Shown here: positions 1 to 40,926 of the stretch, one piece after another
Position numbering within the stretch: the first letter of the stretch is position 1
How the letters are laid out: every line of letters begins with the position of its first letter
Sequence record: NC_052663.1
Direction: 5' to 3' (one strand)
Source of the DNA: Escherichia phage VEcB
DNA length: 64,000 nt
Position numbers and translations under genes: made by a program
The notes under the pieces: model-generated
The model's database searches: none
What the model was told of the DNA's origin: nothing
What the model saw: only the letters and a program-made list of their open reading frames with translations

Positions 1-71
1 AGCCTACTCTTTTAAAAGCGCAATAAATCAGAATTATCTTGATTTTTAGTCGGTTTTATAGTACAGAAAGT

Positions 72-85
72 ATGCAAATGATAAT
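72..85. repeat. direct repeat ATGCAAATGATAAT, copy 1 (copy 2 at 267-280)
   Basis: identical 14-mer seen twice in the non-coding leader. Confidence 0.6.
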
Positions 86-266
86 CATTATCAGCTATCT
101 TCCACGGGTAGCACTATTTCACGCCAGATCATTTCATTTGGCAAGGTGTATATAGATGTTTAGACTTGCCAAGCCATTGATTTACTTAGAATTTATCTGT
201 TTTGTTGTGAGTAGTACCTTTCTTGCTCAGAAAATAATCAAAAGTCTTATAAGTCATTGAATGATA

Positions 267-280
267 ATGCAAATGATAAT
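267..280. repeat. direct repeat ATGCAAATGATAAT, copy 2
   Basis: identical 14-mer to 72-85. Confidence 0.6.
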
Positions 281-410
281 TATTCTCATTGATATTTGAG
301 GGGGACGGTCGGCAGAAATCGGGGGGCGCTGAAAATCGCGTTAAGCACCTCTCGCAAGCGAGCAGTATTTTGCGGCAAGTTATTGATATTATTGACTTTA
401 CGCTTATGGA

Positions 411-422
411 AAAGGGGTGTGT
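411..422. repeat. direct repeat AAAGGGGTGTGT, copy 1 (copy 2 at 488-499)
   Basis: identical 12-mer twice, 77 bp apart, in the leader. Confidence 0.6.
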
Positions 423-487
423 CGAAATAAATCGGGTATACCGGAAAATTTTTGTGGCATAGATATTTATTTGTTTATATTATGTAC

Positions 488-499
488 AAAGGGGTGTGT
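488..499. repeat. direct repeat AAAGGGGTGTGT, copy 2
   Basis: identical 12-mer to 411-422. Confidence 0.6.
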
Positions 500-601
500 T
501 AAAAATAATAGGTATATATAGAATAATTGATAGGGAATACCTATACTAATTCCTTCATTATTGCAGTGGGTGAAAGACAGAATCGAAGATGCAAATAATG
601 C

Positions 602-629
602 TTGCATTGAATAAAAATGTCTGTATAGT
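602..629 (+). promoter_or_regulatory. sigma70-like promoter TTGCAT-N16-TATAGT
   Basis: -35/-10 hexamers about 70 nt upstream of first gene (ATG 697). Confidence 0.5.
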
Positions 630-696
630 GGTTTGCATACCGCGCACGACGCGTTTCCATTTTCAATAAAATGTTAGCATTATGGGGAGGTAGAAA

Positions 697-1158
697 ATGA
701 GACAACTATCTATACTGGAAGCACATGTGCAATGTGTTGCAGATTATGTCAAAGAACACTCAAGTTTGTTGGATGTAACCTGTGCAGTGCAAAATGATGT
801 AGGTATTGTCTGTGTGCGACATATCTTATCTGAAACTCGTTATGAAGTATTTCGTGCCAAGTTGTTTGGATGTGATCAAGTGCATGTAAACTTCTTGGAT
901 TCCAATTTTCGTTATGCTTTAGAAAATATTGATGATTATCTTCCTTGCTCCCCGACCGGATATGTGATGATGGCAGCAAATGAAGTAACACCAAGCAACA
1001 ATGAGCGGGAAACTTTGTTACGGAAGAAAATACGCCAACTGCAAGTGTTGAATGAAATGAAAGAAGAGATTGAAAAAGAACTGAAAGAAGATTTTGGTAT
1101 GCTTCCAAAAGACGCTTTGAAATGGTATGATGAACTAGGAGAGGAAAGTTATGAATAA
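697..1158 (+). CDS. hypothetical early protein
   Basis: 153-aa ORF, GGGGAGG SD upstream, first gene of plus-strand array. Confidence 0.5.
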   Translation: MRQLSILEAHVQCVADYVKEHSSLLDVTCAVQNDVGIVCVRHILSETRYEVFRAKLFGCDQVHVNFLDSNFRYALENIDDYLPCSPTGYVMMAANEVTPSNNERETLLRKKIRQLQVLNEMKEEIEKELKEDFGMLPKDALKWYDELGEESYE

Positions 1159-1338
1159 AGAAACTACTGTGTACTTAGTAACAAAGAATACCCCAGGCTG
1201 GAGCCAATGCAGCACTGTACCTTATAAAATCTGTGCAACATTAGAACTAGCACAACGTGCAGAAGCAGAAGTGAATGCCATGCAATACAGCTATGGTGAG
1301 ATCATTCCTTTTACTCTTGAACAATAAGGAGTTGTGTA

Positions 1339-1791
1339 ATGTTTGAAATTGGTAAAGTGTATCGTTTTAAAAACCCATCTTATATCCGTAAGTTTGCTAA
1401 CGTGTCTGAGTGCAATAGCAGGATTGCTTCTTTTTTAGGTGATTCCTATTTTCGTGTATTAGATGTGGATGATTGGTATGGTGTCACTGCTTTGCAATCC
1501 TTAGCAGGAGAACAAGAAATTATCGCTCAAAATGAAGGAGACTTTCTTCAGTGTTACACGTTGCTTGCAAAAAGTGAGTTTGAGTATTTTGTAGAAGTCT
1601 TAGAGGAAGCACCAAAAAGTAAACACGAAGAGAAATACCTGCTTGTAGTGGATGGAGTTCCGATCATGGAAACCATCTCCCGTGAGGAAGTTGAAAAAGA
1701 GGCGAAACGTTACAAGCTGGATCGTACACAGAGTGTAGTTGAAATCTATTCTCTTGTTGGTGTTGCAGATATTAGTGTGAACATCGTATAA
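1339..1791 (+). CDS. hypothetical protein
   Basis: 150-aa ORF with AAGGAG SD. Confidence 0.5.
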   Translation: MFEIGKVYRFKNPSYIRKFANVSECNSRIASFLGDSYFRVLDVDDWYGVTALQSLAGEQEIIAQNEGDFLQCYTLLAKSEFEYFVEVLEEAPKSKHEEKYLLVVDGVPIMETISREEVEKEAKRYKLDRTQSVVEIYSLVGVADISVNIV

Positions 1792-1794
1792 TAT

Positions 1795-2007
1795 ATGTGT
1801 AATGACAGATACATTCTTCGTGTATCTGATAAGTCTCCTATGTTTGACTGGCGGGGCTGGTGGCTACTAGCTCCGATGCAAGGTCTGACAGACGTGGAAA
1901 AGGAGGCTTATGTGTATACAAAAGAAGAGATAGAAGATAATCTTTATTTGACAGATAACATTAAGAATGATATCTTTGAGTGTAAATTGAAAGGAGAGGA
2001 AGAATGA
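1795..2007 (+). CDS. hypothetical protein
   Basis: 70-aa ORF, 4-nt overlap with next gene (ATGA). Confidence 0.4.
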   Translation: MCNDRYILRVSDKSPMFDWRGWWLLAPMQGLTDVEKEAYVYTKEEIEDNLYLTDNIKNDIFECKLKGEEE

Positions 2008-2303
2008 CTATTACAGAAAAACTGCGCTGTATTGCGAAGCAAAGTGGAGAAGGCTTATGGTTTCCTATTGAGGAAATTATTCAGGACTGTTATGATCAGG
2101 CTAAGACTGGCAAATACTCCAAAGCATTTAAACCATCTGTTTTCGGTTTGGATGACTATCCAAAAAATGAACAAGCAAAGAAACGACAAGTTGATTTGAT
2201 TGATCTTGCTATGGAAGCACTACGAGAGCATGGGCTTAGTAAGGTGTATGCTTTAAACACCAAAGAGGGTTTTGTAGATTCAGTGATCGTAGACTGGTAT
2301 TAA
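2004..2303 (+). CDS. hypothetical protein
   Basis: 99-aa ORF translationally coupled to upstream gene. Confidence 0.45.
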   Translation: MTITEKLRCIAKQSGEGLWFPIEEIIQDCYDQAKTGKYSKAFKPSVFGLDDYPKNEQAKKRQVDLIDLAMEALREHGLSKVYALNTKEGFVDSVIVDWY

Positions 2304-2312
2304 GGAGAAGTC

Positions 2313-2681
2313 ATGCAAGAGAATAGTAAAGTGTGTAGCATGAAAAGCAGCCCCTATTTGCTACAATTTTATAAGTGGTGGTTAGAACAAGAAGATACAA
2401 ACTTTAGCAAAAAGCATTATGGTCTTTGCACGTGTCTTGTAGACTTCTTATACAATATTGCTTGGATAAAAGATGTTGAGAGTGTATCAAAGCTCCAATC
2501 CTCTGTACGAGAGGAAATGAAGGAACAGTTTAAGAAAGCGGGTTTGAACCATTTACATCCGTTTAATACGGATTTCTCGCACTACTTTACGGAAACAGAG
2601 CTAGGCATTGCACACCTTAATAAAGAACGTGTACAATGGGTGATTGATCGTATTCGTGATATGGAGGAATGCAATGATTAA
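2313..2681 (+). CDS. hypothetical protein, paralog family A
   Basis: 122 aa; shares LLQFY, HPFN and HLNKER-WV motifs with 3591-4175. Confidence 0.5.
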   Translation: MQENSKVCSMKSSPYLLQFYKWWLEQEDTNFSKKHYGLCTCLVDFLYNIAWIKDVESVSKLQSSVREEMKEQFKKAGLNHLHPFNTDFSHYFTETELGIAHLNKERVQWVIDRIRDMEECND

Positions 2682-2883
2682 GTTTAAAACTTTCTGTGCA
2701 ATCACTGTTTGTCTTATTCTTGCATACGTGTTATTCTCTAGTATCATTCGTTTAGGTGAGCATATGGCAAGAGAAGCTCGTGAAAGTGAAGCTAAAAAAG
2801 AACAGTGTATTGTGTTAAAGCATCAAAGGGATGCTGAAAAATTTCTTGAACAGGATTGTGGGCGCTATGTGAATTATAATTAG
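2674..2883 (+). CDS. small membrane protein, paralog family B
   Basis: start moved to ATG after GGAGG; one TM helix then KEQCIVLKH-AEKFL motif shared with 7270-7494. Confidence 0.45.
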   Translation: MIKFKTFCAITVCLILAYVLFSSIIRLGEHMAREARESEAKKEQCIVLKHQRDAEKFLEQDCGRYVNYN

Positions 2884-2892
2884 GAGGGAAGT

Positions 2893-3141
2893 ATGTTAGA
2901 TATTTTTACCTTTGATCGTGTTGGTACACCGATTACCGAAGAAGAACGTACCAAAATTGAACAAGAATTGGATGCTTTACGTGCGTCTCTTACAGACACA
3001 GCCTCACTACAACGTGAAGCTGCACATCTCACAGAGATCACTGGTATTCAGTGGAGCACGGAGTGGGTTGTAATTACAATTGAAGCGGATATTTGGGGAC
3101 ATGAAGAGACGCTACGTACCGGAGTAGTAACGGTTTGGTGA
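2893..3141 (+). CDS. hypothetical protein
   Basis: 82-aa ORF with AGGAGGG SD. Confidence 0.45.
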   Translation: MLDIFTFDRVGTPITEEERTKIEQELDALRASLTDTASLQREAAHLTEITGIQWSTEWVVITIEADIWGHEETLRTGVVTVW

Positions 3142-3187
3142 TAGATGTTATTCTTTTGTGTTTCTTGATATATAAATAGGAGGGTTT

Positions 3188-3412
3188 ATGGTAAAACGTC
3201 TGGAATGGGATGCGTGTACTGCTCACGCTTGCCACTGTGATATTGTTGAAGATCCTAATGGAGAGATGGTGTATTATGAAGATTACGAAGCATTGCACAA
3301 TGCTGTGATTGCTTTACTGGATGATATTAGCTCACGCTATCCAGGACAACAATTCACGTGTCCACATATCCAACTATTAGCCGAACTTACGGAGTATCCA
3401 AGTGTTCCATAA
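3188..3412 (+). CDS. hypothetical protein, paralog family C
   Basis: 74 aa; CDIVEDPNGEMV-EDY motif shared with 8146-8418. Confidence 0.45.
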   Translation: MVKRLEWDACTAHACHCDIVEDPNGEMVYYEDYEALHNAVIALLDDISSRYPGQQFTCPHIQLLAELTEYPSVP

Positions 3413-3590
3413 TATGGGTGTCCCTGAACAACTGCTCTTTATTGTAGGATTAGTAGGCTTATTGGCGGCTGGCGCTAAAGCCGCTTCTCACACGCATCAC
3501 ATAATGTTAAGATTTCTGTTCCTACTCCCTTCTATCCTTGTATTATTAGTCATATTGATTGATAACATTTTTCACAATTAAGGAGAGGTT

Positions 3591-4175
3591 ATGAGTAAAA
3601 TTATACCAAGCAGTTATGAATTATTGCAGTTTTATGTATATTACTTAGACTGGGTTAATAGATCGAATGTTAAAGACAATGCGATGTTTAGTAAAAACAT
3701 CTGTTTAACAGAAAGTATCTTCCGTTATTGGCACACAGGCAGAAAGTGTACACACAGTGAAGCTATGCGCATTGTAGGTGAATACCTGGAGCAATTGCAA
3801 AAAGCAGAACTTCCTGTCCTTCACCCATTCAACGAATCTAAAGAAGAATTAGAACAAGAGTGTAGAGAAGGTAAGTGCCATTTAAATGAAAAACGTATCG
3901 AATGGGTGAGGCAACGTTTAGCCGATGCAGGAAAGACTCCTAGTGACTCTGACTATACGTGGTATGATGTAGAGGGTTTAGTTCAAGGTTTTGAGGCTTG
4001 TGCTATAGATAATACCAACTTTGCCAAAGTTTTATGTGAGGCTTATGATCTGGCAGATAAAATCCGAAATCACGGATGGAAACAAGAGCATAAAGAATCA
4101 TATGAACGCCTTGACAAGATTTTCAAACAGATCTATTCTAACCACAAGAAGATGTTCCAAATGGAGGATGTGTAA
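3591..4175 (+). CDS. hypothetical protein, paralog family A
   Basis: 194 aa; motifs shared with 2313-2681. Confidence 0.5.
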   Translation: MSKIIPSSYELLQFYVYYLDWVNRSNVKDNAMFSKNICLTESIFRYWHTGRKCTHSEAMRIVGEYLEQLQKAELPVLHPFNESKEELEQECREGKCHLNEKRIEWVRQRLADAGKTPSDSDYTWYDVEGLVQGFEACAIDNTNFAKVLCEAYDLADKIRNHGWKQEHKESYERLDKIFKQIYSNHKKMFQMEDV

Positions 4176-4861
4176 TGAAAGAGATTATGTTTGAAGGGCA
4201 TTGTTACGAAGTTCCAGACAATGCAAATTTCATGGCTCGTGATATCACTGGAGATGTGTTCTGGTTTGAAGATGAACCTATGTTTTCTTCGAACAAACAC
4301 TGGTTTTCACAACAATCTTCTTCGGAAAATATGACTTTTGGCTACGTAGAGCCTAAAGTACGTTGCAAAGCAGCTTCTTCTTTGGTAAAAATTTCCCAAG
4401 ATGACCAAGAAAATACTCAAGATGTTGTTAGTGCGCTACTGAAGTACATTGCAGAACTTGAGAAGAAAATTAAAGAAGCAGAAACTAAGGTGAAAGCACG
4501 ATCAGCAATCATCGAAACTATGTCTGAACGTATTTTAGAACTAGAAGATTTGTGTGGAGAGGCTTATCAAGTGGTTGGTGCGCTGGCGTGTGAAGCACAA
4601 ATGTTTGAAACTTCAGAACAAGTTTCGCATATGTTAGATAATTTGAGTGAATGTAAAATGATTCATGATGATGTATTGCCATTTTGTTGCAATGTTAACA
4701 AAACAGAGCAAACACAAGATTCAGAAACAGTTTATGTTCCGCTAATGTGTGTTCCAGATCATCTAAAAGGTGTATTCTCTTGTAAATGGTCGCTGTTGAG
4801 CGTTACTAATTGTGGTGAAAACTATTCTGCCAACATTGAATTGCTAAAACACGTTAAATAA
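4175..4861 (+). CDS. hypothetical protein with coiled-coil segment
   Basis: 228-aa ORF, start overlaps upstream stop. Confidence 0.5.
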   Translation: MKEIMFEGHCYEVPDNANFMARDITGDVFWFEDEPMFSSNKHWFSQQSSSENMTFGYVEPKVRCKAASSLVKISQDDQENTQDVVSALLKYIAELEKKIKEAETKVKARSAIIETMSERILELEDLCGEAYQVVGALACEAQMFETSEQVSHMLDNLSECKMIHDDVLPFCCNVNKTEQTQDSETVYVPLMCVPDHLKGVFSCKWSLLSVTNCGENYSANIELLKHVK

Positions 4862-4871
4862 GGAGAGTAAT

Positions 4872-5276
4872 ATGTGGTCTGTTAAAATCAAATATAATGC
4901 GCAGTATTATGGTGGAAAGCCTTACGAAGTTGTTATTTGTGATTGTATCTCTAAAGAAGTTGCACAGCTTTGTGGCGCTGGTGTTAGTGAAGCTATGAAC
5001 AAAATGCATAACTCTACTGTGCGTTACTTGGATCAAGATATTCCAGAAGATGTAAATGACTATGCTTACGAAGTTATTTACAGTGAAGGTAAGAAGCTCT
5101 CTATTGAAGATGCACTTAAAGCACTACCTGCTATGTGCAGCCCAACACCAGAAGCAGTTAAAGAGATTTTACCAGAATCCAACCCCGATGAATATGCTGC
5201 TATGGTTGCTTCGGACATGTGGAATCTCTGTCGAGAAACTATGATTAAAAATCTGGTGGAAATGGCGCATGAGTAA
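4872..5276 (+). CDS. hypothetical protein
   Basis: 134-aa ORF with AAGGAG SD. Confidence 0.5.
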   Translation: MWSVKIKYNAQYYGGKPYEVVICDCISKEVAQLCGAGVSEAMNKMHNSTVRYLDQDIPEDVNDYAYEVIYSEGKKLSIEDALKALPAMCSPTPEAVKEILPESNPDEYAAMVASDMWNLCRETMIKNLVEMAHE

Positions 5277-5487
5277 AACGCACTTTATACATCCGTTTGA
5301 TCCAAAGAACAAGGCGGTTATACACCGCCGTTGGACTGAAACGCGCATTACAAAATGTCCTGTGCCAGCAGCACAGGAATATAACAAAACATATAAAGCA
5401 GAATTTGTGGAGTACACCTTTGTAAATAACAAAGGGAAGGAGGTTTATGTTCCAGAATACTGCCTTTGGATAAAATGGGAGGAATAA
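5269..5487 (+). CDS. hypothetical protein
   Basis: 72-aa ORF overlapping neighbours by a few nt. Confidence 0.4.
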   Translation: MSKTHFIHPFDPKNKAVIHRRWTETRITKCPVPAAQEYNKTYKAEFVEYTFVNNKGKEVYVPEYCLWIKWEE

Positions 5488-5654
5488 TGCAAACATTTTT
5501 TATCGACAAGTTCAATAAAAGTATGAACACGTGGATGGCAACATTCACTATGCAATTTGCGTCATTTAAAGAAGCTCAAGAATGGTGCGATCAACACAAG
5601 GATTTTGATTTTTACTATCAAGTTAATGCAAACCTTTCTCCAGAGGAGAAATAA
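5487..5654 (+). CDS. hypothetical protein
   Basis: start moved to ATG after GGAGG (ORF track 5466). Confidence 0.4.
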   Translation: MQTFFIDKFNKSMNTWMATFTMQFASFKEAQEWCDQHKDFDFYYQVNANLSPEEK

Positions 5655-5655
5655 T

Positions 5656-6000
5656 ATGTTGGCTGATATTGAAATCCTTATGTACCGACAAGGTATGATC
5701 AAAATGTGGCTAGATTCTTTTAGCAACATATACTGCACAGTACGATCAGCAGACGAGCGTAAAACGCTTATTTTATCTGCTATTGTTGATAAACAACGTT
5801 TCTTCAAAGAAGTTTTGCAAACAGGCTTCTCCGATGCAGGAGTAGAGATTGCAACGCTTAGTCTTGGAGTGCTGTCTTACTTGGAATCCGTTGTTTTATA
5901 TGTCTTCTCTTTAGAAGAACACTTGCAATTTGAAGCATTAAAACTTATCTTAGAAGCTGCAATTGACATAGAACAAAATCGAATTGATTCTTTTGAATAA
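5656..6000 (+). CDS. hypothetical protein
   Basis: start moved to ATG after GAGGAG (ORF track 5557). Confidence 0.45.
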   Translation: MLADIEILMYRQGMIKMWLDSFSNIYCTVRSADERKTLILSAIVDKQRFFKEVLQTGFSDAGVEIATLSLGVLSYLESVVLYVFSLEEHLQFEALKLILEAAIDIEQNRIDSFE

Positions 6001-6016
6001 AAATAAGGAGGAAACT

Positions 6017-6475
6017 ATGCAAGAGGTTAAACATTATCCACATGGTCGTAGTTTTGTAGCTGTATGGCATGTTCCTGCTCGTAATGAACTATTTTGCGCA
6101 TCTTTTCATTACAAAGATGGACAATATTTCACCTATGACGAGACGATGGATGATTTTATCCCAGAGTGCGATCATGGGTATACACCAATGTTCTTTAAAC
6201 GTATGAAAGCTCGTTTCTTCGTTACAGATGTTGATGGTGAACCTACTTGGCACATCGAAGAAGATTGGCAAGATTCTGTAGATATTAAAGAAGCCCCAGA
6301 ATGGGCTACACTACTGGTACACGTCAAAACCCCTACCCTTGACGTTATGGCGTGGGTTAATCATGATGACACCCATTTCCAATACATAAATAGTAGCACA
6401 GAAATTTCTGGCGAGATTATTGGTCGTTGGAAGCCTACGAATCAGGTTGCTATTGTCGGGTATAAGACTGTATAA
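6017..6475 (+). CDS. hypothetical protein
   Basis: start moved to ATG after AAGGAGG (ORF track 5984). Confidence 0.5.
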   Translation: MQEVKHYPHGRSFVAVWHVPARNELFCASFHYKDGQYFTYDETMDDFIPECDHGYTPMFFKRMKARFFVTDVDGEPTWHIEEDWQDSVDIKEAPEWATLLVHVKTPTLDVMAWVNHDDTHFQYINSSTEISGEIIGRWKPTNQVAIVGYKTV

Positions 6476-6476
6476 T

Positions 6477-6671
6477 ATGAAAAATAGTATAGATTGGGAT
6501 GATTTATCCGATTTTGAAAAATGGTTCTTAGGTAGTGGTTGTTATGCAGACGGGGATCTCGAAAGAGATCCTTCTGGAAACTACACTATGCCATTAACCC
6601 AAGGTTTTTATGAGTGCTGGTGCGCAGCACAAAACAACGTACTGAATAAGGAGACAACACAATGCAATTAA
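6477..6671 (+). CDS. hypothetical protein
   Basis: start moved to in-frame ATG just after upstream stop (ORF track 6420). Confidence 0.35.
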   Translation: MKNSIDWDDLSDFEKWFLGSGCYADGDLERDPSGNYTMPLTQGFYECWCAAQNNVLNKETTQCN

Positions 6672-6901
6672 ACATCGGACAACCAATTTTTGATGCAGAT
6701 ACTGGTCAATATGCAGTGATTGTTGCTCGTATGAGCGGTGATGACCTTATTGTTTCAGAACTACTGGAATCAGATCCGCAACTGCGTGTGGTTTGTGACC
6801 TATATCTTCGAGACGAAAGTGATCGCATTGCACTGAAAGAAGATGGTATGCTCTACTACACCTGGACTAGAGATCCTGGGGTAACGGAGGTAGAGGTATA
6901 A
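6662..6901 (+). CDS. hypothetical protein
   Basis: 79-aa ORF with AAGGAG SD. Confidence 0.45.
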   Translation: MQLNIGQPIFDADTGQYAVIVARMSGDDLIVSELLESDPQLRVVCDLYLRDESDRIALKEDGMLYYTWTRDPGVTEVEV

Positions 6902-7200
6902 TGGTAAGGAATAGGGGTTTACATAAAAGAAGACACCTTACTTACTGGCATCGTAAAGTACATGAACCTGTATCAAAGAAAGAATGGCAATATCTGCCTT
7001 ATGGGAAGGAGCGAAGAAAGTATCTGTTAGCTCATTTAAGGGTACATGGTTCTCTTCCTGTTAACAGTAAGTGGCAATTGCAAACAGCTTATGACGAGGA
7101 TATGAAATATCTGTTAAAGAGGGGCATTATTTGCCTTGTTAAGATAGGACGATGGAAATCTCGTCAATCTTATATCGTACTTAAACAGGAGAAACCATGA
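6901..7200 (+). CDS. hypothetical basic protein
   Basis: 99-aa lysine/arginine-rich ORF, start overlaps upstream stop. Confidence 0.45.
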   Translation: MVRNRGLHKRRHLTYWHRKVHEPVSKKEWQYLPYGKERRKYLLAHLRVHGSLPVNSKWQLQTAYDEDMKYLLKRGIICLVKIGRWKSRQSYIVLKQEKP

Positions 7201-7212
7201 ATATCAAAGATG

Positions 7213-7241
7213 TTGACACGATCTTAACTTCTTGTTAGTAT
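7213..7241 (+). promoter_or_regulatory. sigma70-like promoter TTGACA-N17-TAGTAT
   Basis: consensus -35 and good -10 upstream of gene at 7270. Confidence 0.5.
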
Positions 7242-7269
7242 CAATGTGTACTAACGATAAGGAGGGTTC

Positions 7270-7494
7270 ATGAAGTCTGTAAACAATTTGCAACAATTTT
7301 TGTTATCAACAGCAATCTTTTTGCTTTTGTTAATTGGTATTCTGTATGGTGCAGCTAACTTGTACAATCTACATAATGATGTAGAACAGAACAAAGAGAA
7401 GTGCATCATTCTAAAACACAATAAACAAGCAGAAGATTTCTTAAAGAATAAGTGTTACAACTACATTGATTATGAGGAGACAAACAATGATTAA
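7270..7494 (+). CDS. small membrane protein, paralog family B
   Basis: 74 aa, N-terminal TM helix, KEKCIILKH-AEDFL motif. Confidence 0.5.
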   Translation: MKSVNNLQQFLLSTAIFLLLLIGILYGAANLYNLHNDVEQNKEKCIILKHNKQAEDFLKNKCYNYIDYEETNND

Positions 7495-7729
7495 AGAATT
7501 AGGTATGCGAGTATACAGTGAGTGGACTCCAAGCAATGGCCCAGGAGTTGTTGCAGCTAAATGTATCAATGGTCGTATTGAGTACCTGGAAGGGTATGAA
7601 GATAATGAAGAGTTAGTAGATTATGCTAAATCTTTTATTGAAGATGATACAGACTTTATTGTATTATATGATACAGGAGAGTTAGAGTATGGATATGATG
7701 GAGATGGGGATATCTTTGAACTTCAATAA
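7487..7729 (+). CDS. hypothetical acidic protein
   Basis: start moved to ATG after GAGGAG (ORF track 7466). Confidence 0.4.
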   Translation: MIKELGMRVYSEWTPSNGPGVVAAKCINGRIEYLEGYEDNEELVDYAKSFIEDDTDFIVLYDTGELEYGYDGDGDIFELQ

Positions 7730-7936
7730 GAGTAGTAAGTAAGGTATAAAGAGTATATAATTAGTTATAGAGTTAGTAACATTACATATACTCTTTCCAT
7801 GTATAACATGGAATATTCTCTACCTCGCTATCGCTCGGTATATAAGATTAGGGTAGCATGTTTTTTAAGAAAAGTAAAACTGTTTATACCGATTGATAGC
7901 AGGTTTTTAATAGGTTCTATCTATGAGGAGTAGAAA

Positions 7937-8155
7937 GTGTACAAATTATATAAAGGAAAAGATAAGTTTACGGGTAATCCATCTGGTTTCTATGTAACAC
8001 CACGTGGCGTTGCTGTATTTGATTGGATCTCTGGTACTCCAGATCGTGAAATGATCTCTCTTGTAAAACTGTCAGAACAAGAGTACACTTACGGTGACAT
8101 TACAACATTCTATTCTCGTGCAGAAAATCCAAAACTGATTGCGGAGTGGGAATAA
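7937..8155 (+). CDS. hypothetical protein
   Basis: 72-aa ORF, GTG start after GAGGAG. Confidence 0.4.
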   Translation: MYKLYKGKDKFTGNPSGFYVTPRGVAVFDWISGTPDREMISLVKLSEQEYTYGDITTFYSRAENPKLIAEWE

Positions 8156-8418
8156 TGGTTACACGATATGATTTAGAGGTGTACAGCCAAGGTGCTGCTG
8201 GTCAATGTGATATTGTACCAGATCCAGAAGGAGACTATGTTCTTCTTGCTGATTACAATAAGCTAGAAGAAAGGCTTCTGGCTATGTATGCTAAAGAGAA
8301 CAAAACAATCTGTCCTTATTGCAGTGGAATGGGTTGGGTGGTTGCAGATGTCGGACAAATGTATGAATGTGTACCTTGTAAAACCACAGGCTTTATTGAA
8401 AAGGATACTGACAAATGA
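8146..8418 (+). CDS. hypothetical protein, paralog family C
   Basis: 90 aa; CDIVPDPEGDYV-ADY motif plus C-terminal CxxC-CxxC. Confidence 0.45.
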   Translation: MGIMVTRYDLEVYSQGAAGQCDIVPDPEGDYVLLADYNKLEERLLAMYAKENKTICPYCSGMGWVVADVGQMYECVPCKTTGFIEKDTDK

Positions 8419-8663
8419 CTGTAGCAGATAAAATGAGAGAACTGGCAGAAAACGCAGAACTTAACAAAGCAAAGGAGAGTTTACAAAATATCTACGCGTA
8501 TATTGAAAGAGCAGCTAAAGACGGGGACAGAGAGGTTGCTATATACACGCTTTATCCAACTTTTGTAAAAGTTAGCTTGGATGCTGAAGGTTTTTCAACT
8601 TTTATTGATACAGAAACATCTCATTACGATGAAAACTTTACTCGCATAGTTATTCGATGGTAA
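8415..8663 (+). CDS. hypothetical protein
   Basis: 82-aa ORF, ATGA overlap. Confidence 0.4.
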   Translation: MTVADKMRELAENAELNKAKESLQNIYAYIERAAKDGDREVAIYTLYPTFVKVSLDAEGFSTFIDTETSHYDENFTRIVIRW

Positions 8664-8768
8664 ATTTCTGATATTTATGCGCCCTGGCTACCTGGGCGTA
8701 ATAAATTCAGCTTATATTTGATCCGCGCCTTCGGCGCTTAGGCAAAGCCACGCCACACAGGAGGGTTT

Positions 8769-9179
8769 ATGTTCAAATGGTTAAAAGGGTTTCTAACATC
8801 TTTGGCAGAACCTAAGCAAGATGTTATTAAAAGCTCTATCACAGGAAAACCGCTTGTTATAGTTACAGGCGGCTTTGGTCATGGGTTTTCTCTTAAACAA
8901 ACAGATATAGGTTTACAGGGGTGTCTGATTAGCTTTAGAATCACTCAATTAGGAGATAATAGACAAACAATCTTAGATCTTTTCAATGGGGAGTTTGATG
9001 ATTATTTATCTAAGAGTGATAAAGAACGTCTGATCGAGCATATAAAACACCGCTATGAGCATGGTGGTTACTACTTAGATACAAAACGTAATGCACAAGG
9101 TGATCTTGACATAGTTCGTATAGCGTGGGATAATGAATTTAAAACTAAACTTGGTAAACTTCTGGAGGAGTTATGGTAA
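8769..9179 (+). CDS. hypothetical protein
   Basis: 136-aa ORF with AGGAGGG SD. Confidence 0.5.
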   Translation: MFKWLKGFLTSLAEPKQDVIKSSITGKPLVIVTGGFGHGFSLKQTDIGLQGCLISFRITQLGDNRQTILDLFNGEFDDYLSKSDKERLIEHIKHRYEHGGYYLDTKRNAQGDLDIVRIAWDNEFKTKLGKLLEELW

Positions 9180-9355
9180 ATATTAAAACAGGTGATATTG
9201 TACGTCTTGCCAGTGAAGAAATGTTAATGACTGTAATGGTATCTACCTATGATACTTGCGAAGTGGTATGGTTTGATGTTAATGAACAACTACAGAAAGC
9301 TACATTTGATAAACGTATGCTTCGTAAAGTTGAAGAAGTGAAGGAGGAAGAATAA
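9173..9355 (+). CDS. hypothetical protein
   Basis: 60-aa ORF overlapping upstream stop. Confidence 0.35.
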   Translation: MVNIKTGDIVRLASEEMLMTVMVSTYDTCEVVWFDVNEQLQKATFDKRMLRKVEEVKEEE

Positions 9356-9356
9356 T

Positions 9357-9569
9357 ATGACAATGTTGCTTCGTATGTTTGTGTTTCTTATGTTCTGGAT
9401 TATCGTTGGTAACGGTATTGTATTTTTGATTTTTCCTGAAGTAATGACAGGTAATGAAAATAAAGCAGTGCCTTACATTATGCTTATCGGTTACGGCATT
9501 GGTACACTTGGATTACTGTTTGCTGACTGGTTAGTCAATACTTTGTTCTCTAAGTACAGGAACAACTAA
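9357..9569 (+). CDS. small membrane protein (two TM helices)
   Basis: 70-aa hydrophobic ORF. Confidence 0.45.
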   Translation: MTMLLRMFVFLMFWIIVGNGIVFLIFPEVMTGNENKAVPYIMLIGYGIGTLGLLFADWLVNTLFSKYRNN

Positions 9570-9570
9570 T

Positions 9571-9843
9571 ATGTCGGAAAAATTACCTAATGTTTTCTTT
9601 TGTTTTGTAGATTGTGTTACACAAGAAATTATAGTTGACGAAGAAGGTATGTTTACTTATTTTGCATCTGAAGAAGAGGCAAAACTATCAGCTATGAAAT
9701 GTATAAGCCAATTGTCAGTACCTGCTGTCAACAGGTTCGGTATTGCACAGGTGTATAAAACAGTAACAGAGTTTACACCAGATCGAAAACTAACTTTTCT
9801 TAACGTTCACTTTGTTTGTAAGTTTAGTGAACTACGACATTAA
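9571..9843 (+). CDS. hypothetical protein
   Basis: 90-aa ORF. Confidence 0.4.
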   Translation: MSEKLPNVFFCFVDCVTQEIIVDEEGMFTYFASEEEAKLSAMKCISQLSVPAVNRFGIAQVYKTVTEFTPDRKLTFLNVHFVCKFSELRH

Positions 9844-9856
9844 ATCAGGAGTAAAA

Positions 9857-10456
9857 ATGAAAGAATATTGGAGTGGTGAGAAGGGCTTACTAAAGCCAGG
9901 AATGCTTTTACGAGTAAAGAACATGTTGATCACACAAGATTACATAATGCCTAATCCTGGAGCATTAGTAGAATTCCTTACTGCGCGAGATCAACCTGGG
10001 GTTGGTGAAATGTGGATTGTAACGTGGATATCTCTCGATGGTAAATTGCGCGTTGCTCCTATTGACCCAAAACACCTAGAATCTCCTTACGCCAGTATTG
10101 ATCCTCGGATCATAGATTTGGCTAGAGTTTATAAAGCTCGGACTGGTGTAGAATTAAATGTGGAAATTTTAAATCAATGTATTGACTTCTTACCGGAAAA
10201 AGTGCATAATGCTCAACAAGAAGGTAACGGTTTAGAAGTTGTTCTTCTTAATGATGGGATGTTCTCTGGTTTGGCATCCGTAGATTTTCCAATAACATTA
10301 AGATTGTTACCTGGAGAATATGTACTGGATGAAGATACTATTGCTATATCCTCTAAAATTTTAGAACTCATTCCAGGTGCAAGGTGTGTTGGTGATACAT
10401 CTTCCTTGCTGTTTACTCTGAATGAAGAAGCCATTATAGTTAAAAAGGAGAAGTAA
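9857..10456 (+). CDS. hypothetical protein
   Basis: start moved to ATG after AGGAG (ORF track 9812). Confidence 0.5.
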   Translation: MKEYWSGEKGLLKPGMLLRVKNMLITQDYIMPNPGALVEFLTARDQPGVGEMWIVTWISLDGKLRVAPIDPKHLESPYASIDPRIIDLARVYKARTGVELNVEILNQCIDFLPEKVHNAQQEGNGLEVVLLNDGMFSGLASVDFPITLRLLPGEYVLDEDTIAISSKILELIPGARCVGDTSSLLFTLNEEAIIVKKEK

Positions 10457-10611
10457 ATGATGACGTTTATTGTTGGTGTTGTTGTTGGTTATTTTGGTCA
10501 CAAGTACCAAGATGTTATCATCGCTAAAGTTGACGAAGTAATCGAAAAATTTAAATGCTAATTTTTAAAAGGCTGTACTGCTGTGCAGCCTATCTTTCAA
10601 AGGAGAGTAAA

Positions 10612-10785
10612 ATGTTCAAAGATACCAATTATAAATGTGTACATTGTGGTAAATCTTTTGGTGATCACAAAGCTAAAACATTCAATTGTCCACGAAAAGG
10701 GCGAGGTAGCTTTAAAGGTTTTAATCCATCCCACGTTTATTCTCCCGACTACGAGAAACCAGAAGAAGAAAAATTTGTAATCTGA
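10612..10785 (+). CDS. small zinc-finger-like protein
   Basis: start moved to ATG after AAGGAGAG; CxxC...C motif. Confidence 0.4.
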   Translation: MFKDTNYKCVHCGKSFGDHKAKTFNCPRKGRGSFKGFNPSHVYSPDYEKPEEEKFVI

Positions 10786-10794
10786 GGAGGCAAT

Positions 10795-11082
10795 ATGGAA
10801 CTAGTGCAAGAAGTTTATGAAAAACTGAAAGAAGAGAATCTTGATTGGCCTGAACATGCTCTTATTGTCGTCAAAGATACTAATGGTGAAATAAAATTCT
10901 CAAGTGTAAGTGAAGATGATGTTGTTTTAAGTCCTACAGGATATTATATGAGAGGTGTTACGTGTCTATTCAACACCAAAGTGTATCCTGAAATTAAACT
11001 TAGTTACGGTGAACCTGATCATCCAGAAATCGTTACACGTAATGAATATGAAAATTATTATTTTGCTCGTGAAAGCAAATAA
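10795..11082 (+). CDS. hypothetical protein
   Basis: 95-aa ORF with GAGGAGG SD. Confidence 0.45.
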   Translation: MELVQEVYEKLKEENLDWPEHALIVVKDTNGEIKFSSVSEDDVVLSPTGYYMRGVTCLFNTKVYPEIKLSYGEPDHPEIVTRNEYENYYFARESK

Positions 11083-11090
11083 GGAAAACT

Positions 11091-11414
11091 ATGCAAAAAA
11101 TAAACACTGGTTCTCGTCCTAAACAGAAGCAAACAAAAGCAAGGGTATCTTATGTTGACAACTCTTGTTATAATTTCAAAAATGTTAAAGAAGTTATCAT
11201 TGATGAAAAAGAAGGTTTGATTCACATTTCATCTGAACGTTTGAAAGGTAGTGTTACTCTTCGTGAGAATGTATCTATACCTATGAAAGTTGTGGCTACA
11301 CTCTGTGTTGATAAACCAGATGTTGTTAACTACTATGTGTTCCGTGATAGTTGTATTTCATTACATAATAAGATTTTTAAATCTTCGCACGTTAAAACAA
11401 AACACATTGTATAA
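11091..11414 (+). CDS. hypothetical protein
   Basis: 107-aa ORF with AAGGA SD; last gene of plus-strand early array. Confidence 0.45.
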   Translation: MQKINTGSRPKQKQTKARVSYVDNSCYNFKNVKEVIIDEKEGLIHISSERLKGSVTLRENVSIPMKVVATLCVDKPDVVNYYVFRDSCISLHNKIFKSSHVKTKHIV

Positions 11415-11420
11415 CACATA

Positions 11421-11442
11421 AACCCGCTTCGGCGGGTTTTCT
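11421..11442 (+). terminator. rho-independent terminator (CCCGC-TTCG-GCGGG + T-run)
   Basis: GC hairpin followed by TTTT right after stop of 11091-11414. Confidence 0.6.
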
Positions 11443-11787
11443 TGTATGTGTGTTTTTATTTGTCTTAGCATAAACAATAGGAGGTATTATATCTGTAGTT
11501 GTAGAAGGTAGTATTGGTTTCTTAGTAGATAACCCTCACCCTTTCGTGGTTAAGGTTCATATTCAAGAAAAGGTAAGCAACAATACGTGGTTGTGCTTGT
11601 TAGATAGTAAGATACACTCTTATACAGAGGTTTATCTTCACACTTGGCAAATTGGTACGATAACAGCAGAGGATGAATTGATAATTGAACTATATGAACG
11701 AGATCTGTAGATGACTTTATTAGAGAGTATCGTAGTGTTAATCATCTTTATCATTGTTGTCATAGGATATTTTACAGAAGACTAAAA

Positions 11788-11820
11788 TAAAGCCCCTAGA
11801 AGCGATTCTAGGGGCTTTTG
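11788..11820. terminator. bidirectional terminator hairpin
   Basis: AGCCCCTAG...CTAGGGGCT stem flanked by A-run and T-run at convergence of plus and minus blocks. Confidence 0.55.
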
Positions 11821-11885
11821 TTTGCATTAGATAGGGAAACGTATTACTAAAATAAAAAGTGCGTTAGAATGCGTTACAGGAGGTT

Positions 11886-12143
11886 TTAAGAATGCATAAA
11901 ATCTTCTTCAGGGCAGGTTGAGAGATAAGAGATGCACGTTGGGACAACAACAACATTATCTTTAAGGTTTGCAACCAAGCCTTTTGTAATTCCAGCCACT
12001 GCCCCGTTAATATCTGCTTGACGGATACCAAAACCTTGTTGTGCGGATAGATAACAAAATCCCTCACCTTTCTGTTGATTATTATTGAAGTAATAAACGT
12101 AGTGCATCATAAAATGGTCTTTAACGATTTGTTCTGTGGTCAT
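11886..12143 (-). CDS. hypothetical protein
   Basis: 85-aa ORF, last gene of minus-strand block. Confidence 0.4.
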   Translation of the reverse strand: MTTEQIVKDHFMMHYVYYFNNNQQKGEGFCYLSAQQGFGIRQADINGAVAGITKGLVANLKDNVVVVPTCISYLSTCPEEDFMHS

Positions 12144-22997: not shown

Positions 22998-23264
22998 TTA
23001 CTCCGCAATCTGAGCCATGAATTCACGTAGTTCAGAAAAACCTCCTACGTGGGTTAGCTGTTCACCATCTTCCACAAAAATCTGAGGAAATGTACGTGGT
23101 AGAACACCTGTTTTCTCTAAGACCAGAGTCTGAATCTGATCTAAAGAATAGTCTTCATCTAAGGTAAGGTATTTAAAATCCTGTTCACGCTGTTCTAGTA
23201 GAATCTTAGCGTTAGTGCAGAAAGGACAATTTGGTTTACCGTAGATAATAAAATTCATTTTCAC
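22998..23264 (-). CDS. glutaredoxin-like protein
   Basis: CPFC active site in an 88-aa protein. Confidence 0.7.
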   Translation of the reverse strand: MKMNFIIYGKPNCPFCTNAKILLEQREQDFKYLTLDEDYSLDQIQTLVLEKTGVLPRTFPQIFVEDGEQLTHVGGFSELREFMAQIAE

Positions 23265-24091
23265 TCCTTGTTTAAAAGTATAGTTAAAGTTCTTACAATA
23301 CCGCTATCAACACTTCGCGGATTTAAAGTAGGATCTGTTTTTAAATAAGATGTTGCTGGTCTGACTGCTTTGGAATTATAGGTTGAAGCAGATACAGGAT
23401 TAACTGTAACAGATAAATCTATAACAAGAAATATCTTTCGTGCAAAATCATACCAAGAAATATAATCTGCACCTGCATAGTGTACAATTTTACTATTTAC
23501 ACCATCTTTTACAAGTTTAAAAATTGTTTCTGCAAGATCAGGTGCATAAGTAGGACATGATAAATGATCACATACTACATTAAATTCTTTTTGACCACCG
23601 TTGTAGCGTTCCAACATAGTTTTCAAAAAGTTATGTCCAAATTCACTATAAACAGAAGCTGTTCTGATAATAAGTGCTGTAGGACAAACTGTTTGTACTA
23701 AAGTTTCACCTAATTGTTTACTGTAACCGTAGGTGTTCAAGGGGTTTGTTTTACTATCTTCTGTGCCAGCAACATGCCCATCAAAAACATAGTCTGTTGA
23801 AATATGTACAAACTGTATCAGTAAATCATTACATGCTTTGGCAATGTTTGTTGCACCGTATGCATTAACATTTATACAGGTGTTAACATCTTCTTCAGCT
23901 TTATCTACTGCCGTGTAAGCCGCACAATTCACAACAACATCAGGCACGTGCTGTACAAGACTATTCATAACATCTTTAAAGTTGGTAATGTCTATATCAC
24001 TTGCTTCAATCAAAATAACATCTTCTGGTGCAACTTTTGCCAAAGATTGTCCTAATTGACCTTTTGAACCAAAGATTAAAAATTTTGTCAA
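23261..24091 (-). CDS. rmlD: dTDP-4-dehydrorhamnose reductase
   Basis: N-terminal GSKGQLG Rossmann motif, size and operon position after rmlC. Confidence 0.75.
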   Translation of the reverse strand: MTKFLIFGSKGQLGQSLAKVAPEDVILIEASDIDITNFKDVMNSLVQHVPDVVVNCAAYTAVDKAEEDVNTCINVNAYGATNIAKACNDLLIQFVHISTDYVFDGHVAGTEDSKTNPLNTYGYSKQLGETLVQTVCPTALIIRTASVYSEFGHNFLKTMLERYNGGQKEFNVVCDHLSCPTYAPDLAETIFKLVKDGVNSKIVHYAGADYISWYDFARKIFLVIDLSVTVNPVSASTYNSKAVRPATSYLKTDPTLNPRSVDSGIVRTLTILLNKE

Positions 24092-25532: not shown

Positions 25533-26522
25533 TTAAACTTTATTTTCCCACCACTCTTTGTTATCTACATACCAATCAATGGTTGAATAAAGTTTTTCTT
25601 CAAATGTGCCTTTAGCTTTCCACCCTAATTCCTTTTCAATCTTATAAGGATTCACTTCATATCTTAAATCATGCCCAGGCCTATCTGTAACCATCTCAAT
25701 GAGGCTACAAGCATCTGTTTCAGATGGATACACCGCATCCATATAATCACAAATCATATAGATTACATCAATATTAGTTCTAGGGTTTCTGCTCCCAATA
25801 TTATATGTTTCTCCAGATTTGCCTTTAGTTACTACTAGGTGTAATGCTTCTGCGTGATCGTCAACGTATAACCAATCTCTTACTTGAAGACCATTGCCAT
25901 AAACAGGGATTGGTTTATGCATCAAAATATTTGTTATCGTTTTAGGTATTAGTTTTTCTGGATGATGATACGCTCCAAAATTATTTGAACAATTTGTTAT
26001 AACTGTCGGAATACCATAAGTACGATGCCACGCTCTTACCAAATGATCGCTTGCTGCCTTAGATGCAGCATATGGACTACTTGGCTTATAAGGATTCTGT
26101 TCTGTAGACGGATAATCCCCTTCTTCCAGATCACCATACACTTCATCTGTTGAAATATGATGAAACATTTTAAGATTTGATTTATCTCCCATTAAACGAA
26201 CAGCTTCTAGAAGATTAAATGTTCCAACAATATTTGAATTTATAAAAACACTCGGTGATGCTATTGAATTATCTACGTGACTTTCTGCTGCAAGATGCAT
26301 TATATAATCTGGATTAACATCTGCCACAATCTTAGCAGTTAACTGAGCATTTGTCAAGTCAACACGACAAAACTTTACATTAGGTGTTTCTGATAAATTT
26401 CTAGGGTCTGAAGCGTAACCCCATTTATCTATAACGTAAATATCATTCTTAGTGTTTTTAGCCAGGAAACGAACTACCGCACTTCCAATAAAGCCTAAAC
26501 CACCTGTTACTAAGTATTTCAT
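25533..26522 (-). CDS. rmlB: dTDP-glucose 4,6-dehydratase
   Basis: [12 protein letters not shown]-binding motif, short-chain dehydrogenase layout, 329 aa. Confidence 0.85.
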
Positions 26523-26729: not shown

Positions 26730-27056
26730 TTACCAAACGTGTTGAGAAATAATAGTTTCCGTTTCAATGTTATATTTTTCAAGAATTTGTGCATAGGCTT
26801 CTTTTGCATTCTTATTTAGTTGCTCAAGATCTACAGCTACACTTCCTTCGCCACCTTCTAAATAAATGCCATATATGCAATAAGATTCATCAGCGTCATA
26901 GAAAGGAGAGATACGACTTAAATCAAGACCTTCTTGTAAGAACCAGTTAAAATCTCCATCAAATTCTTCTTCAATTCTAGGATCTTCTCCTACAGCCTCT
27001 TCCCATTTATTAAAAGGCGCACCCTGTAACATACGCCATTCAATATTAGTTCCCAT
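26730..27056 (-). CDS. hypothetical acidic protein
   Basis: 108-aa ORF. Confidence 0.45.
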   Translation of the reverse strand: MGTNIEWRMLQGAPFNKWEEAVGEDPRIEEEFDGDFNWFLQEGLDLSRISPFYDADESYCIYGIYLEGGEGSVAVDLEQLNKNAKEAYAQILEKYNIETETIISQHVW

Positions 27057-27194
27057 TATCTTCCTCCTCTTCTTTTTCTTCCGTATGAACGAAACCTAAA
27101 CCGTTACAATTCCAACAAGGAATAAATTGTTCCATACTAACAATAAAATTCCCAGTACCCCCGCAGATAGGACAAATACTTACATCATCCATTA

Positions 27195-28716: not shown

Positions 28717-29373
28717 TTAGCCTCGAAATACTGTTTTTGTTTCCGCCAGGTGACAATAGAAATCCGCTTTGTTTACAAGAGTGTTGTACACCTCTGGATA
28801 AAAATGTTCTTCCTCTTTGTAACGATCCGCTGTTTCCCTGATTGACTTAGCTTTATCCTTTAGCCAAGCAAAGTGTGCCTCTTCCTCTGTAGCGAAGTAG
28901 CCTAAATGCTTACCTTTACTTCCAGAGGCTTTTGCATAAATCTTACCATCTTTCCTAACATGTGCTCCTAGTAAGTATTTTCTTTCATACCTTTTAGCAT
29001 AACTTAAGAGTGTATTTATGTAAGGAGGAACAAACCTACAATATTCAGGACAATAAACAGTATTTCCTTCAAGAACAAGATCTTTATCTAAAACAAAGCC
29101 TTCCACGCTATGTTCCTGATACCAGTTATCAAAGTTTGAAAAGGTGAACCAAGCATCACACACGGTAACATCTTTATAACCTGGTCTAATGTTTTCCATA
29201 TTATATGCACGATTAAACATACCCTTCCAAGCTGCATAAGAAGGGTCTATGAATGTATTAACCCTTTTCCCATTGATAACACCACCTTCCCACAATCTAC
29301 GTTCAACATCCACAATCAAGGGGATTTCTCCCCTCTCTGTGAGAACGGTAACTTTACGTTTACCCTTCTTCAT
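28717..29373 (-). CDS. homing-endonuclease-like protein with C-terminal AP2 domain
   Basis: LGYFATEEEAHFAW AP2-type motif; paralog of 40297-40926; sits between nrdB and nrdA. Confidence 0.4.
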   Translation of the reverse strand: MKKGKRKVTVLTERGEIPLIVDVERRLWEGGVINGKRVNTFIDPSYAAWKGMFNRAYNMENIRPGYKDVTVCDAWFTFSNFDNWYQEHSVEGFVLDKDLVLEGNTVYCPEYCRFVPPYINTLLSYAKRYERKYLLGAHVRKDGKIYAKASGSKGKHLGYFATEEEAHFAWLKDKAKSIRETADRYKEEEHFYPEVYNTLVNKADFYCHLAETKTVFRG

Positions 29374-40296: not shown

Positions 40297-40926
40297 TTAT
40301 GTTTTAATCTTGCCAAAATACAATACTTCAGCTTCCTGTCTTGCTGATATAGCATCTTCAATATCAATAAATGCTCCAAGACGGATATCTTTTCCTTGAT
40401 AGGATATACGAGCAATCCATCTTTTTTCTTTCTCGCTCCACACAACACCTGTTTTACCAGAAGTGTTATTTTTCTGTTTTCGTGTATTGTATGACTGGAC
40501 AGACCTTGTAGCCCAGCGACAATTTTCTTTACTGTAATCTTTTTCAGAGTCTATTCTGTCAAGAGATAAACCTTTAGGTCTATCTCCCATATCCTCAAAG
40601 AATGCAGAGAATGAATTTCTCCAAGCATCACAAACCTTAATACCACGACCACCGTAGTATTCAAAGTGAGTATTGTTTTTGTTATAGCATCTCCCTAACA
40701 TAGCTTCCCACGATTTGTATGCTCCTGTTTGTGTTGTTTTCGGTCTACACTTGGAACAATAAGAACTTCTATTCTTCCTAAGTGTTTCCATAGTTACCGT
40801 GCAAATATTACCACAATCACAAGAACAAGTAAAACGTCTTTTGCCATGTTTGTCCCTTTCAATCTCTTCTAAGACAGTATAACAACCGCATTTCTTACCT
40901 ACAAGGTCTACTCTCTTGGCTCCCAT
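40297..40926 (-). CDS. homing-endonuclease-like protein with Cys-rich N-terminus and AP2 domain
   Basis: RWIARISYQGKDIRLGAFIDIEDAISA AP2-type motif; paralog of 28717-29373. Confidence 0.4.
   Translation of the reverse strand: MGAKRVDLVGKKCGCYTVLEEIERDKHGKRRFTCSCDCGNICTVTMETLRKNRSSYCSKCRPKTTQTGAYKSWEAMLGRCYNKNNTHFEYYGGRGIKVCDAWRNSFSAFFEDMGDRPKGLSLDRIDSEKDYSKENCRWATRSVQSYNTRKQKNNTSGKTGVVWSEKEKRWIARISYQGKDIRLGAFIDIEDAISARQEAEVLYFGKIKT

Follow-up and report, generated by a model that had tools for sequence, protein, structure and literature searches.

Introduction

Escherichia phage VEcB (sequence record NC_052663.1) carries, near the start of the 64,000-nucleotide stretch analysed here (hereafter ‘the window’), a cluster of small genes, three of which appear to have a diverged second copy nearby: A1 and A2, B1 and B2, and C1 and C2. 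The locus raises two questions: whether proteins as short as these really are pairs of homologs and, if so, whether their duplication and divergence speak of an arms race with host defences, as the original prediction for this DNA had proposed for what it took to be a host-takeover region. The alignments answer the first with a clear yes. As to the second, our preferred reading, to which we would assign a probability of roughly 0.55, is that the six genes are ancient, constrained paralogs or shared modules, encoding non-enzymatic accessory binding proteins that would be made early, would have diverged in role and are held under purifying selection; we do not see in the locus the marks of an arms race still under way at the sequence level.

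VEcB is a phi92-like myovirus of the genus Justusliebigvirus (subfamily Stephanstirmvirinae). Region 2000–9000 is 96.5–98.9% identical to some 50 phi92-like phages, and the nearest relative of the window is Escherichia phage Antha. The start of the window corresponds to the left terminal repeat on the phi92 genome map, and the small-gene cluster adjoins this repeat and reads away from it. Bases 1–12000 form a densely packed plus-strand block of around 35 small genes, closed by two strong, bidirectional terminator-like hairpins at 11420–11439 and 11789–11818, with the coding strand flipping near 12000. In phi92 the orthologs of all six genes are annotated as hypothetical, with a remark of ‘DnaJ-like zinc finger’ on gp025 (the ortholog of C2) and a SignalP signal peptide on gp022 (that of B2), and none on gp007 (that of B1).

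Homology within the three gene pairs

All six open reading frames (ORFs) of the original prediction exist at the coordinates it gave, with the start of C2 as the sole correction: its stop at 8418 stands, but in place of the upstream GTG at 8146 the most likely start is the ATG at 8155, which overlaps the stop of gp024 and is the start given in the phi92, EmilieFrey and Antha annotations. Pairwise BLASTP aligns pair A at 31% identity over 114 amino acids (aa; E = 8e-12), pair B at 45% over 33 aa (E = 1e-10) and pair C at 36% over 44 aa (E = 4e-7). When the 380 window ORFs that reach 40 aa or more are compared all-against-all, pairs A, B and C rank first, second and fifth, with database-corrected E values of 1.5e-9, 6.8e-8 and 1.9e-4, respectively. 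Smith–Waterman scores set against 2000 shuffles give z-values of 16.0 (A), 16.5 (B) and 10.0 (C), with none of the 2000 shuffles reaching the observed score; every pairing across the three families stays at background. Profile comparisons agree, in that each protein also matches the PHROG family of its partner (the cross-matches being to phrog_15662 and phrog_23204 for pair B, and to phrog_23083 and phrog_22955 for pair C), and profile hidden Markov models (HMMs) that take in homologs from elsewhere pick out, for each family, two window proteins and no more, both at E < 1e-29. The motifs by which the pairs were first recognised (LLQFY, HPFN and HLN..R..WV in A; KE.CI.LKH...AE.FL in B; CDIV.DP.G...DY in C) are all present in the pair alignments.

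The proteins are short, and the aligned regions of B and C extend over only 30–45 aa; chance or low-complexity matching, which the original prediction had named as the finding that would overturn paralogy, is nonetheless refuted by the shuffles, by the ranking among all window ORF pairs and by the reciprocal profile and HMM matches, and with the motifs also kept in the sister genus we give it practically no probability at all. Judged by these comparisons, the three pairs are genuine, ancient intragenomic homologs, and the paralogy first proposed for them is confirmed. The extent of the homology differs from pair to pair: it takes in A1 from end to end and A2 up to residue ~115; in pair B it is strong only over the C-terminal ~30 aa, in addition to a common N-terminal transmembrane architecture; and in pair C it covers the N-terminal ~45 aa only. 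Word-indexed homolog searches with all three families returned close relatives only.

Selection on the six genes and age of the copies

We compared the VEcB window with nine Justusliebigvirus genomes, using pooled Nei–Gojobori estimates of the ratio of nonsynonymous to synonymous divergence (dN/dS, or omega). VEcB and each of the nine relatives carry the full set of six genes in intact form. The omega values of these genes (Table 1), set beside a range of mostly 0.02–0.19 for neighbouring genes, mark every one of the six as a real coding gene under constraint. Pair B alone evolves comparatively fast, with a higher omega than any other gene that is clearly coding and has usable synonymous divergence (dS). 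Between paralogs, identity at third codon positions is 0.30–0.35 and there is no meaningful similarity at the DNA level; this saturation implies that the duplications, or module acquisitions, are old and were not followed by recent gene conversion.

Table 1. Genes and sequence features discussed in the text, in window coordinates.
Feature	phi92 ortholog	Coordinates	Strand	Length (aa)	Description	dN/dS
A1	gp006	2313..2681	+	122	single domain, predicted all-alpha	0.10
A2	gp010	3591..4175	+	194	domain in residues 1–114, plus ~80-aa C-terminal extension	0.09
B1	gp007	2674..2883	+	69	hydrophobic helix 7–25, then KEQCIVLKH...AEKFL..C..Y..Y	0.37
B2	gp022	7270..7494	+	74	predicted signal/anchor helix 10–28, same two-cysteine motif	0.25
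C1	gp008	3188..3412	+	74	pI (isoelectric point) 4.3; N-terminal module ~1–45	0.06
C2	gp025	8155..8418	+	87	N-terminal module plus predicted CxxCxGxG...CxxCxxxG zinc-finger module	0.06
Sigma-70-like promoter candidate		7213..7241	+		TTGACA-17-TAGTAT, TG before -10; in 69-bp gap upstream of B2	
Family A remnant		561..614	+		last 17 codons and stop, LQWVKDRIEDANNACIE*; aligns to Antha and EmilieFrey copies	
Zinc-finger ORF		27046..27192	-	48	CPICGGTG...CWNCNGLG, like C2 C-terminus; all-vs-all BLASTP E = 5e-4	

Family A: a widespread domain with copy gain and loss

A1 matches phrog_2510 at E = 7e-26 and our 117-member family HMM at E = 4e-34, while A2 matches phrog_27059 at E = 9e-140, phrog_2510 at E = 7e-18 and, across its N-terminal domain, the family HMM at E = 1e-31. 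We considered the C-terminal extension of A2 as a degenerate second copy of the domain and rejected this, with scores against the family HMM at noise level. An exhaustive profile search, made with family A as the only query against 1.84 billion representatives (E ≤ 1e-3), assembles the family into 556 clusters; members are mostly stand-alone proteins of 100–125 aa, some of them with two copies of the domain in one ORF (P0005, P0006) and others embedded within longer mosaic proteins. Neither these clusters nor A1 and A2 have a match in Pfam, NCBIfam or PDB sequences, and sub-threshold hits in Pfam, NCBIfam, PADLOC and PDB (ATG11, DREPP, CD20, KwaA, PtuB, designed helical bundles) were dismissed as noise. 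Family A is, in short, a large, uncharacterised domain family specific to phages and prophages, without a Pfam model or a solved structural relative; the PHROG families phrog_2510, phrog_27059 and phrog_6418, all of unknown function, comprise the same ~110-aa domain.

In an alignment of 117 diverse members (A1 numbering), four residues are invariant, P83, F84, R106 and W109, and all four occur in both A1 and A2. Thirteen more are nearly so (L16, F19, Y20, W23, G37, L38, C39, E68, Q72, F73, L78, N103 and V110); A1 has every one, and A2 deviates at several, for example with Y in place of W23, NIC in place of GLC and L in place of F73. The core of the domain can be written as LxxFY...W...GLC...E..QF..AGL...PFN...HLN..R..WV. 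The AlphaFold2 (AF2) model of A1 has a predicted local distance difference test score (pLDDT) of 90.5 and a predicted template modelling score (pTM) of 0.82, and places five helices at residues 14–25, 38–50, 55–75, 88–97 and 104–120, such that we predict an all-alpha, five-helix fold for the family; the neighbours of the model in BFVD align with template modelling (TM) scores of 0.6–0.74.

One fused member (P0148) belongs to a lambdoid/P22-like prophage, where its gene follows cIII, kil, a Rad52-like recombinase, SSB, Abc2 and an Ead/Ea22-like gene, a setting that identifies the early-left operon. Such mosaic ‘Ea-region’ prophage proteins carry the family A domain beside an Ead/Ea22-like gene, and differ from A1 and A2 in that the VEcB proteins are without their coiled-coil N-termini and ‘...ACRAAMLNGGKS’ tails.

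The original prediction had proposed a comparison of copy number with related phages, and for family A the number indeed varies. A tblastn search places the domain at 462 positions in 175 phage records, with 2–4 per genome in Justusliebigvirus and up to 6 in Phapecoctavirus; at closer range, phAPEC8 has seven copies within its first 20 kb and phiWec190 five within 18 kb. EmilieFrey and Paula each have four, owing to two extra tandem copies of 122 aa upstream of the gp001 position, which share 37–42% identity with A1 and 46% with each other, while Antha has three, with a single intact hybrid copy at that same position. Both the VEcB window and phi92 retain the remnant of a third family A gene (Table 1). 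In a neighbour-joining tree of the family, A1 groups with the tandem extra copies and not with A2, and the branches are long and deep, which points to a diversification long past. Against a background in which copies are otherwise only ~30–45% identical among themselves, one of the extra EmilieFrey copies (bas61_0145, 521–889) is 90% identical to phAPEC8 gp244 (7356–7724), suggesting a recent exchange of cassettes between genera. From these sequence comparisons family A emerges as multicopy across the Stephanstirmvirinae, with 2–7 copies per genome; tandem duplication, unequal recombination, deletion and the exchange of cassettes account for the gain and loss of copies.

Family B: predicted exported miniproteins with two cysteines

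The proteins of pair B are predicted to be single-pass miniproteins that are either exported or anchored in the membrane. Their N-terminal helices average 2.4–2.6 on the Kyte–Doolittle scale over 19 residues (2.55 in B1), with flanks that are basic or neutral on the N-terminal side and neutral to acidic on the C-terminal side. The helix is followed by the consensus KE(Q/K)CI(V/I)LKH...AE(K/D)FL...C..Y(V/I).Y, in which the two cysteines are invariant and stand 17 residues apart (C45 and C62 in B1). We infer from this arrangement an N-in, C-out topology, in which the exported domain may carry a disulfide bond. B1 occurs as two C-terminal alleles, in both of which the cysteines are kept, and the single phAPEC8 homolog has the same architecture. 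The two-cysteine motif KE.CI.LKH...AE.FL...C is specific to the Stephanstirmvirinae, and B1 and B2 have no match at a meaningful score among Pfam, NCBIfam and PADLOC families. A weak third B-like ORF at 11290–11421 has no motif and is probably spurious.

The start of B1 overlaps the end of A1 by 8 nucleotides, and this overlapping arrangement of an A gene running into a B gene recurs in phAPEC8; its retention there suggests that A1 and B1 are co-translated or co-expressed and that they may work together.

Among the small phage proteins that are exported with the aid of an N-terminal signal or signal-anchor, Sp (spackle), Imm and the antiholin RI of T4 are familiar examples. B1 and B2 resemble these in their size of 69–74 aa, in having a hydrophobic N-terminal helix ahead of a short, soluble domain with a predicted periplasmic location, and in their position within a region of small, probably early genes; they differ from them in that no described Pfam family matches either protein, as well as in their subfamily-specific cysteine motif.

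Family C: a shared N-terminal module and a predicted zinc finger

Pair C had been put forward as a duplicated gene family, of which a shared N-terminal module of ~45 aa stands and a duplication of the whole gene does not. This module is joined to at least four different C-termini (those of C1, C2, P0157 and P0158), and occurs in a recombinant, P0156, besides. The C-terminal part of C1 recurs, by tblastn, in proteins of 148–152 aa from phAPEC8-like phages. Full-length C2 is found in Justusliebigvirus only; elsewhere only its zinc-finger module finds matches, in small stand-alone proteins that are often mis-annotated as ‘DNA ligase’. As the minus-strand ORF at 27046–27192 consists of the zinc-finger module alone, C2 is best described as a mosaic of two modules and, with varied C-termini on the one hand and stand-alone zinc-finger genes on the other, pair C is a case of module sharing.

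The C-terminus of C2 is predicted to be a DnaJ-type zinc finger. Its first motif, CPYCSGMG, fits CxxCxGxG exactly, its second, CVPCKTTG, reads CxxCxxxG, and the 27046–27192 ORF has two exact motifs; both proteins thereby show the spacing expected of one zinc centre in the cysteine-rich domain of DnaJ (PF00684). A zinc motif of this type within a small protein also recalls anti-TRAP (PF15777/NF058604). C2 differs from both in having one predicted zinc centre rather than two and in scoring 15–18 bits against cut-offs of 32–65 (15.1/32.7 for PF00684, 15.9/32 for PF15777 and 17.7/65 for NF058604), and neither DnaJ nor anti-TRAP has a counterpart of the N-terminal module common to C1 and C2.

We also considered, and rejected, a Lar-like identity for pair C. 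C1 is small and acidic, as Lar-like proteins are, and its N-terminus matches phrog_3592 (Lar-like restriction alleviation) weakly at E = 7.7e-4; C2, however, has no such match in PHROG, neither protein matches the Pfam Lar family (Lar_restr_allev) at E ≤ 1, and the paired CxxC zinc ribbon is absent from both N-termini, with C1 having C10, C15 and C17 in no CxxC pair, and C2 a single cysteine.

A further small cysteine-rich protein (CVHCG...CPRKG), the ortholog of gp033, is encoded in the same cluster at 10612–10785; it is unrelated to the zinc-finger module of C2.

Gene order and the origin of the second copies

A1, B1 and C1 form a contiguous set (directly adjacent in phi92) that is followed by A2, B2 and C2 in the same order, and this invites the proposal that a single ancient segmental duplication of an A-B-C block gave rise to all three pairs, with later insertions spreading the second set apart and the C-terminus of one C gene being replaced. 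The overall divergence of the pairs is alike (31–37% in the pair alignments), an A-to-B-to-C block is itself kept in phAPEC8, and a permutation estimate for the shared order, devised after the pattern had been seen and hence post hoc, gives P ~0.009–0.024. What argues against such an event is that phAPEC8 combines its seven A copies with a single B and a single C module, and has the zinc-finger gene standing alone, from which it follows that the second B-C set was either not ancestral to the subfamily or has been lost there; the family A tree, moreover, does not bring A1 and A2 together. We regard a single block duplication as possible and unlikely, and favour the reading of old paralogs and shared modules as given above.

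Expression

The description of these genes as early, host-takeover genes is only partly supported, by the position of the cluster next to the terminal repeat, by a conserved promoter-like site upstream of B2 and by the fused family A member in the early-left operon of a prophage; taken together, these make early transcription by the host RNA polymerase plausible. The site upstream of B2 is a sigma-70-like candidate (Table 1), and the 64-nucleotide segment that holds it along with the ribosome-binding site is 100% identical in seven relatives, with dS in the neighbouring genes at ~0.1. Elsewhere, a promoter-like TTGCAT-N14-TGTATAGT lies upstream of gp001 at 602–629 of VEcB, where it overlaps the stop codon of the family A remnant; in EmilieFrey and Antha the extra family A copies are preceded by a similar TTGTAA-N17-TATAAT, whose -10 hexamer has a TG directly in front of it.

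Proposed roles and the arms-race question

Synthesising these results, we suggest that the six proteins would be produced shortly after the DNA enters the cell, from promoters of the host type, and would act as non-enzymatic accessory proteins that bind partners from the host or the phage; the partners of A and C may be cytoplasmic, and those of B may lie in the envelope or periplasm. Following the old duplications or module acquisitions, the copies would have diverged in role, with each being kept by purifying selection.

Several points weigh against this proposal. For pair B, the predicted topology draws only on how hydrophobic the helices are, on the charges that flank them and on an old annotation made with SignalP. 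For C2, the AF2 model is of low confidence (pLDDT 43.5), and with that model having failed the structure of the shared C module, probably a beta-hairpin plus a helix by the hint that it gives, is a guess. A generic promoter scan does not rise above shuffled sequence (50 sites found against 45.4 ± 6.5), and our literature search gave no transcriptome for the phi92-like group.

A competing reading is the proposal with which we began, namely an active arms race in which each copy counters a different, fast-changing host defence, and which predicts both fast evolution and turnover. Some support for it comes from family A, with its range of copy numbers, its deletion remnant, its hybrid copy and its exchange across genera, from the moderately raised dN/dS of pair B together with the two B1 alleles, and from neighbouring genes that come and go (gp001, the gene at 2893–3141 and gp020/gp021); related phages are also known to encode small defence-relevant proteins such as Ksap2 (PMC11564622). 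Set against this, the six genes are intact in nine of nine relatives, omega is 0.06–0.10 for A and C and stays below 1 even for B, the divergence between paralogs is saturated and hence old, and PADLOC models of defence-related proteins find no meaningful matches among the window proteins. In the BASEL study, furthermore, phi92-like phages are reported as exceptionally vulnerable to restriction-modification systems (PMC8594841); this speaks against effective anti-restriction genes in the cluster, and not against other counter-defences. With most copies old and conserved, the arms-race story is tempered, and what remains of it is weakly supported; we think it unlikely to be the explanation.

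Ksap2 (Bas60_220) deserves separate mention, as it is a small Stephanstirmvirinae protein that activates the immune sensor KpAvs2 (PMC11564622). Its gene (bas60_0220, 6605–6940) is placed in PaulScherrer between nrdA and nrdB, and not in the left-end cluster. No Ksap2 homolog is found among the VEcB window ORFs, such that VEcB may escape the KpAvs2 sensor, and the family A HMM finds nothing in Ksap2. Its best match to the three families is a 9-residue stretch in C1, where the C-terminal MCDIVEDLNG of Ksap2 resembles the C1 motif HCDIVEDPNG, and this is not significant (E = 0.4); we therefore reject Ksap2 as the identity of family A, B or C, to all of which it is unrelated in sequence.

Returning to the accessory binding proteins of our preferred reading, one might speculate further that the family A copies are specificity variants, each neutralising or redirecting a different host factor (an immune sensor, for example), and that the A-to-B gene pair makes a two-part module, comprising a cytoplasmic binder and an exported envelope miniprotein; we offer this as a long shot.

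The finding itself is of an ordinary kind, since old, diverged small-gene families and shuffled modules are common in the accessory regions of phages. The most useful product of the analysis is the definition of family A as a large, unannotated and structurally unmatched phage domain with documented gain and loss of copies, along with that of a family of two-cysteine miniproteins, predicted to be exported, and of a shuffled N-terminal module of ~45 aa. It is chiefly in small accessory genes near the ends of phage genomes that undiscovered functions in host manipulation and counter-defence reside, and paralog families offer natural sets of variants for finding targets. The practical value of the present analysis lies in the choice of experiments in the tractable BASEL phages (Bas60-62), and not in any new principle.

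Further observations in and around the cluster

The gene content of the cluster differs among relatives at several points. At 7200–7270 of VEcB, phi92 gp020 and gp021 (~400 bp) are missing, with a junction in common with the ‘Campylobacter phage’ A145 group. An extra 82-aa gene at 2893–3141 of VEcB is missing in phi92, ESCO9 and A145; in some records it goes by the name ‘M20/M25/M40 family metallo-hydrolase’, which is implausible for a protein of 82 aa. A 207-bp gap at 7730–7936 holds a terminator-like hairpin (7795–7813) and a 44-aa ORF (7799–7933), annotated as a gene in some relatives, that is probably non-coding given its dN/dS of ~1.04.

Four ‘Campylobacter phage’ records (A145, A110a, A150 and C3; MG065645 and related) match these coliphages at ~97% identity and carry the flag UNVERIFIED; we consider their Campylobacter host label doubtful. 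Finally, the all-against-all BLASTP comparison also brings out two paralog pairs among larger, minus-strand genes, 23261–24091 with 25533–26522 (E = 2e-7) and 40297–40926 with 28717–29373 (E = 8e-7).

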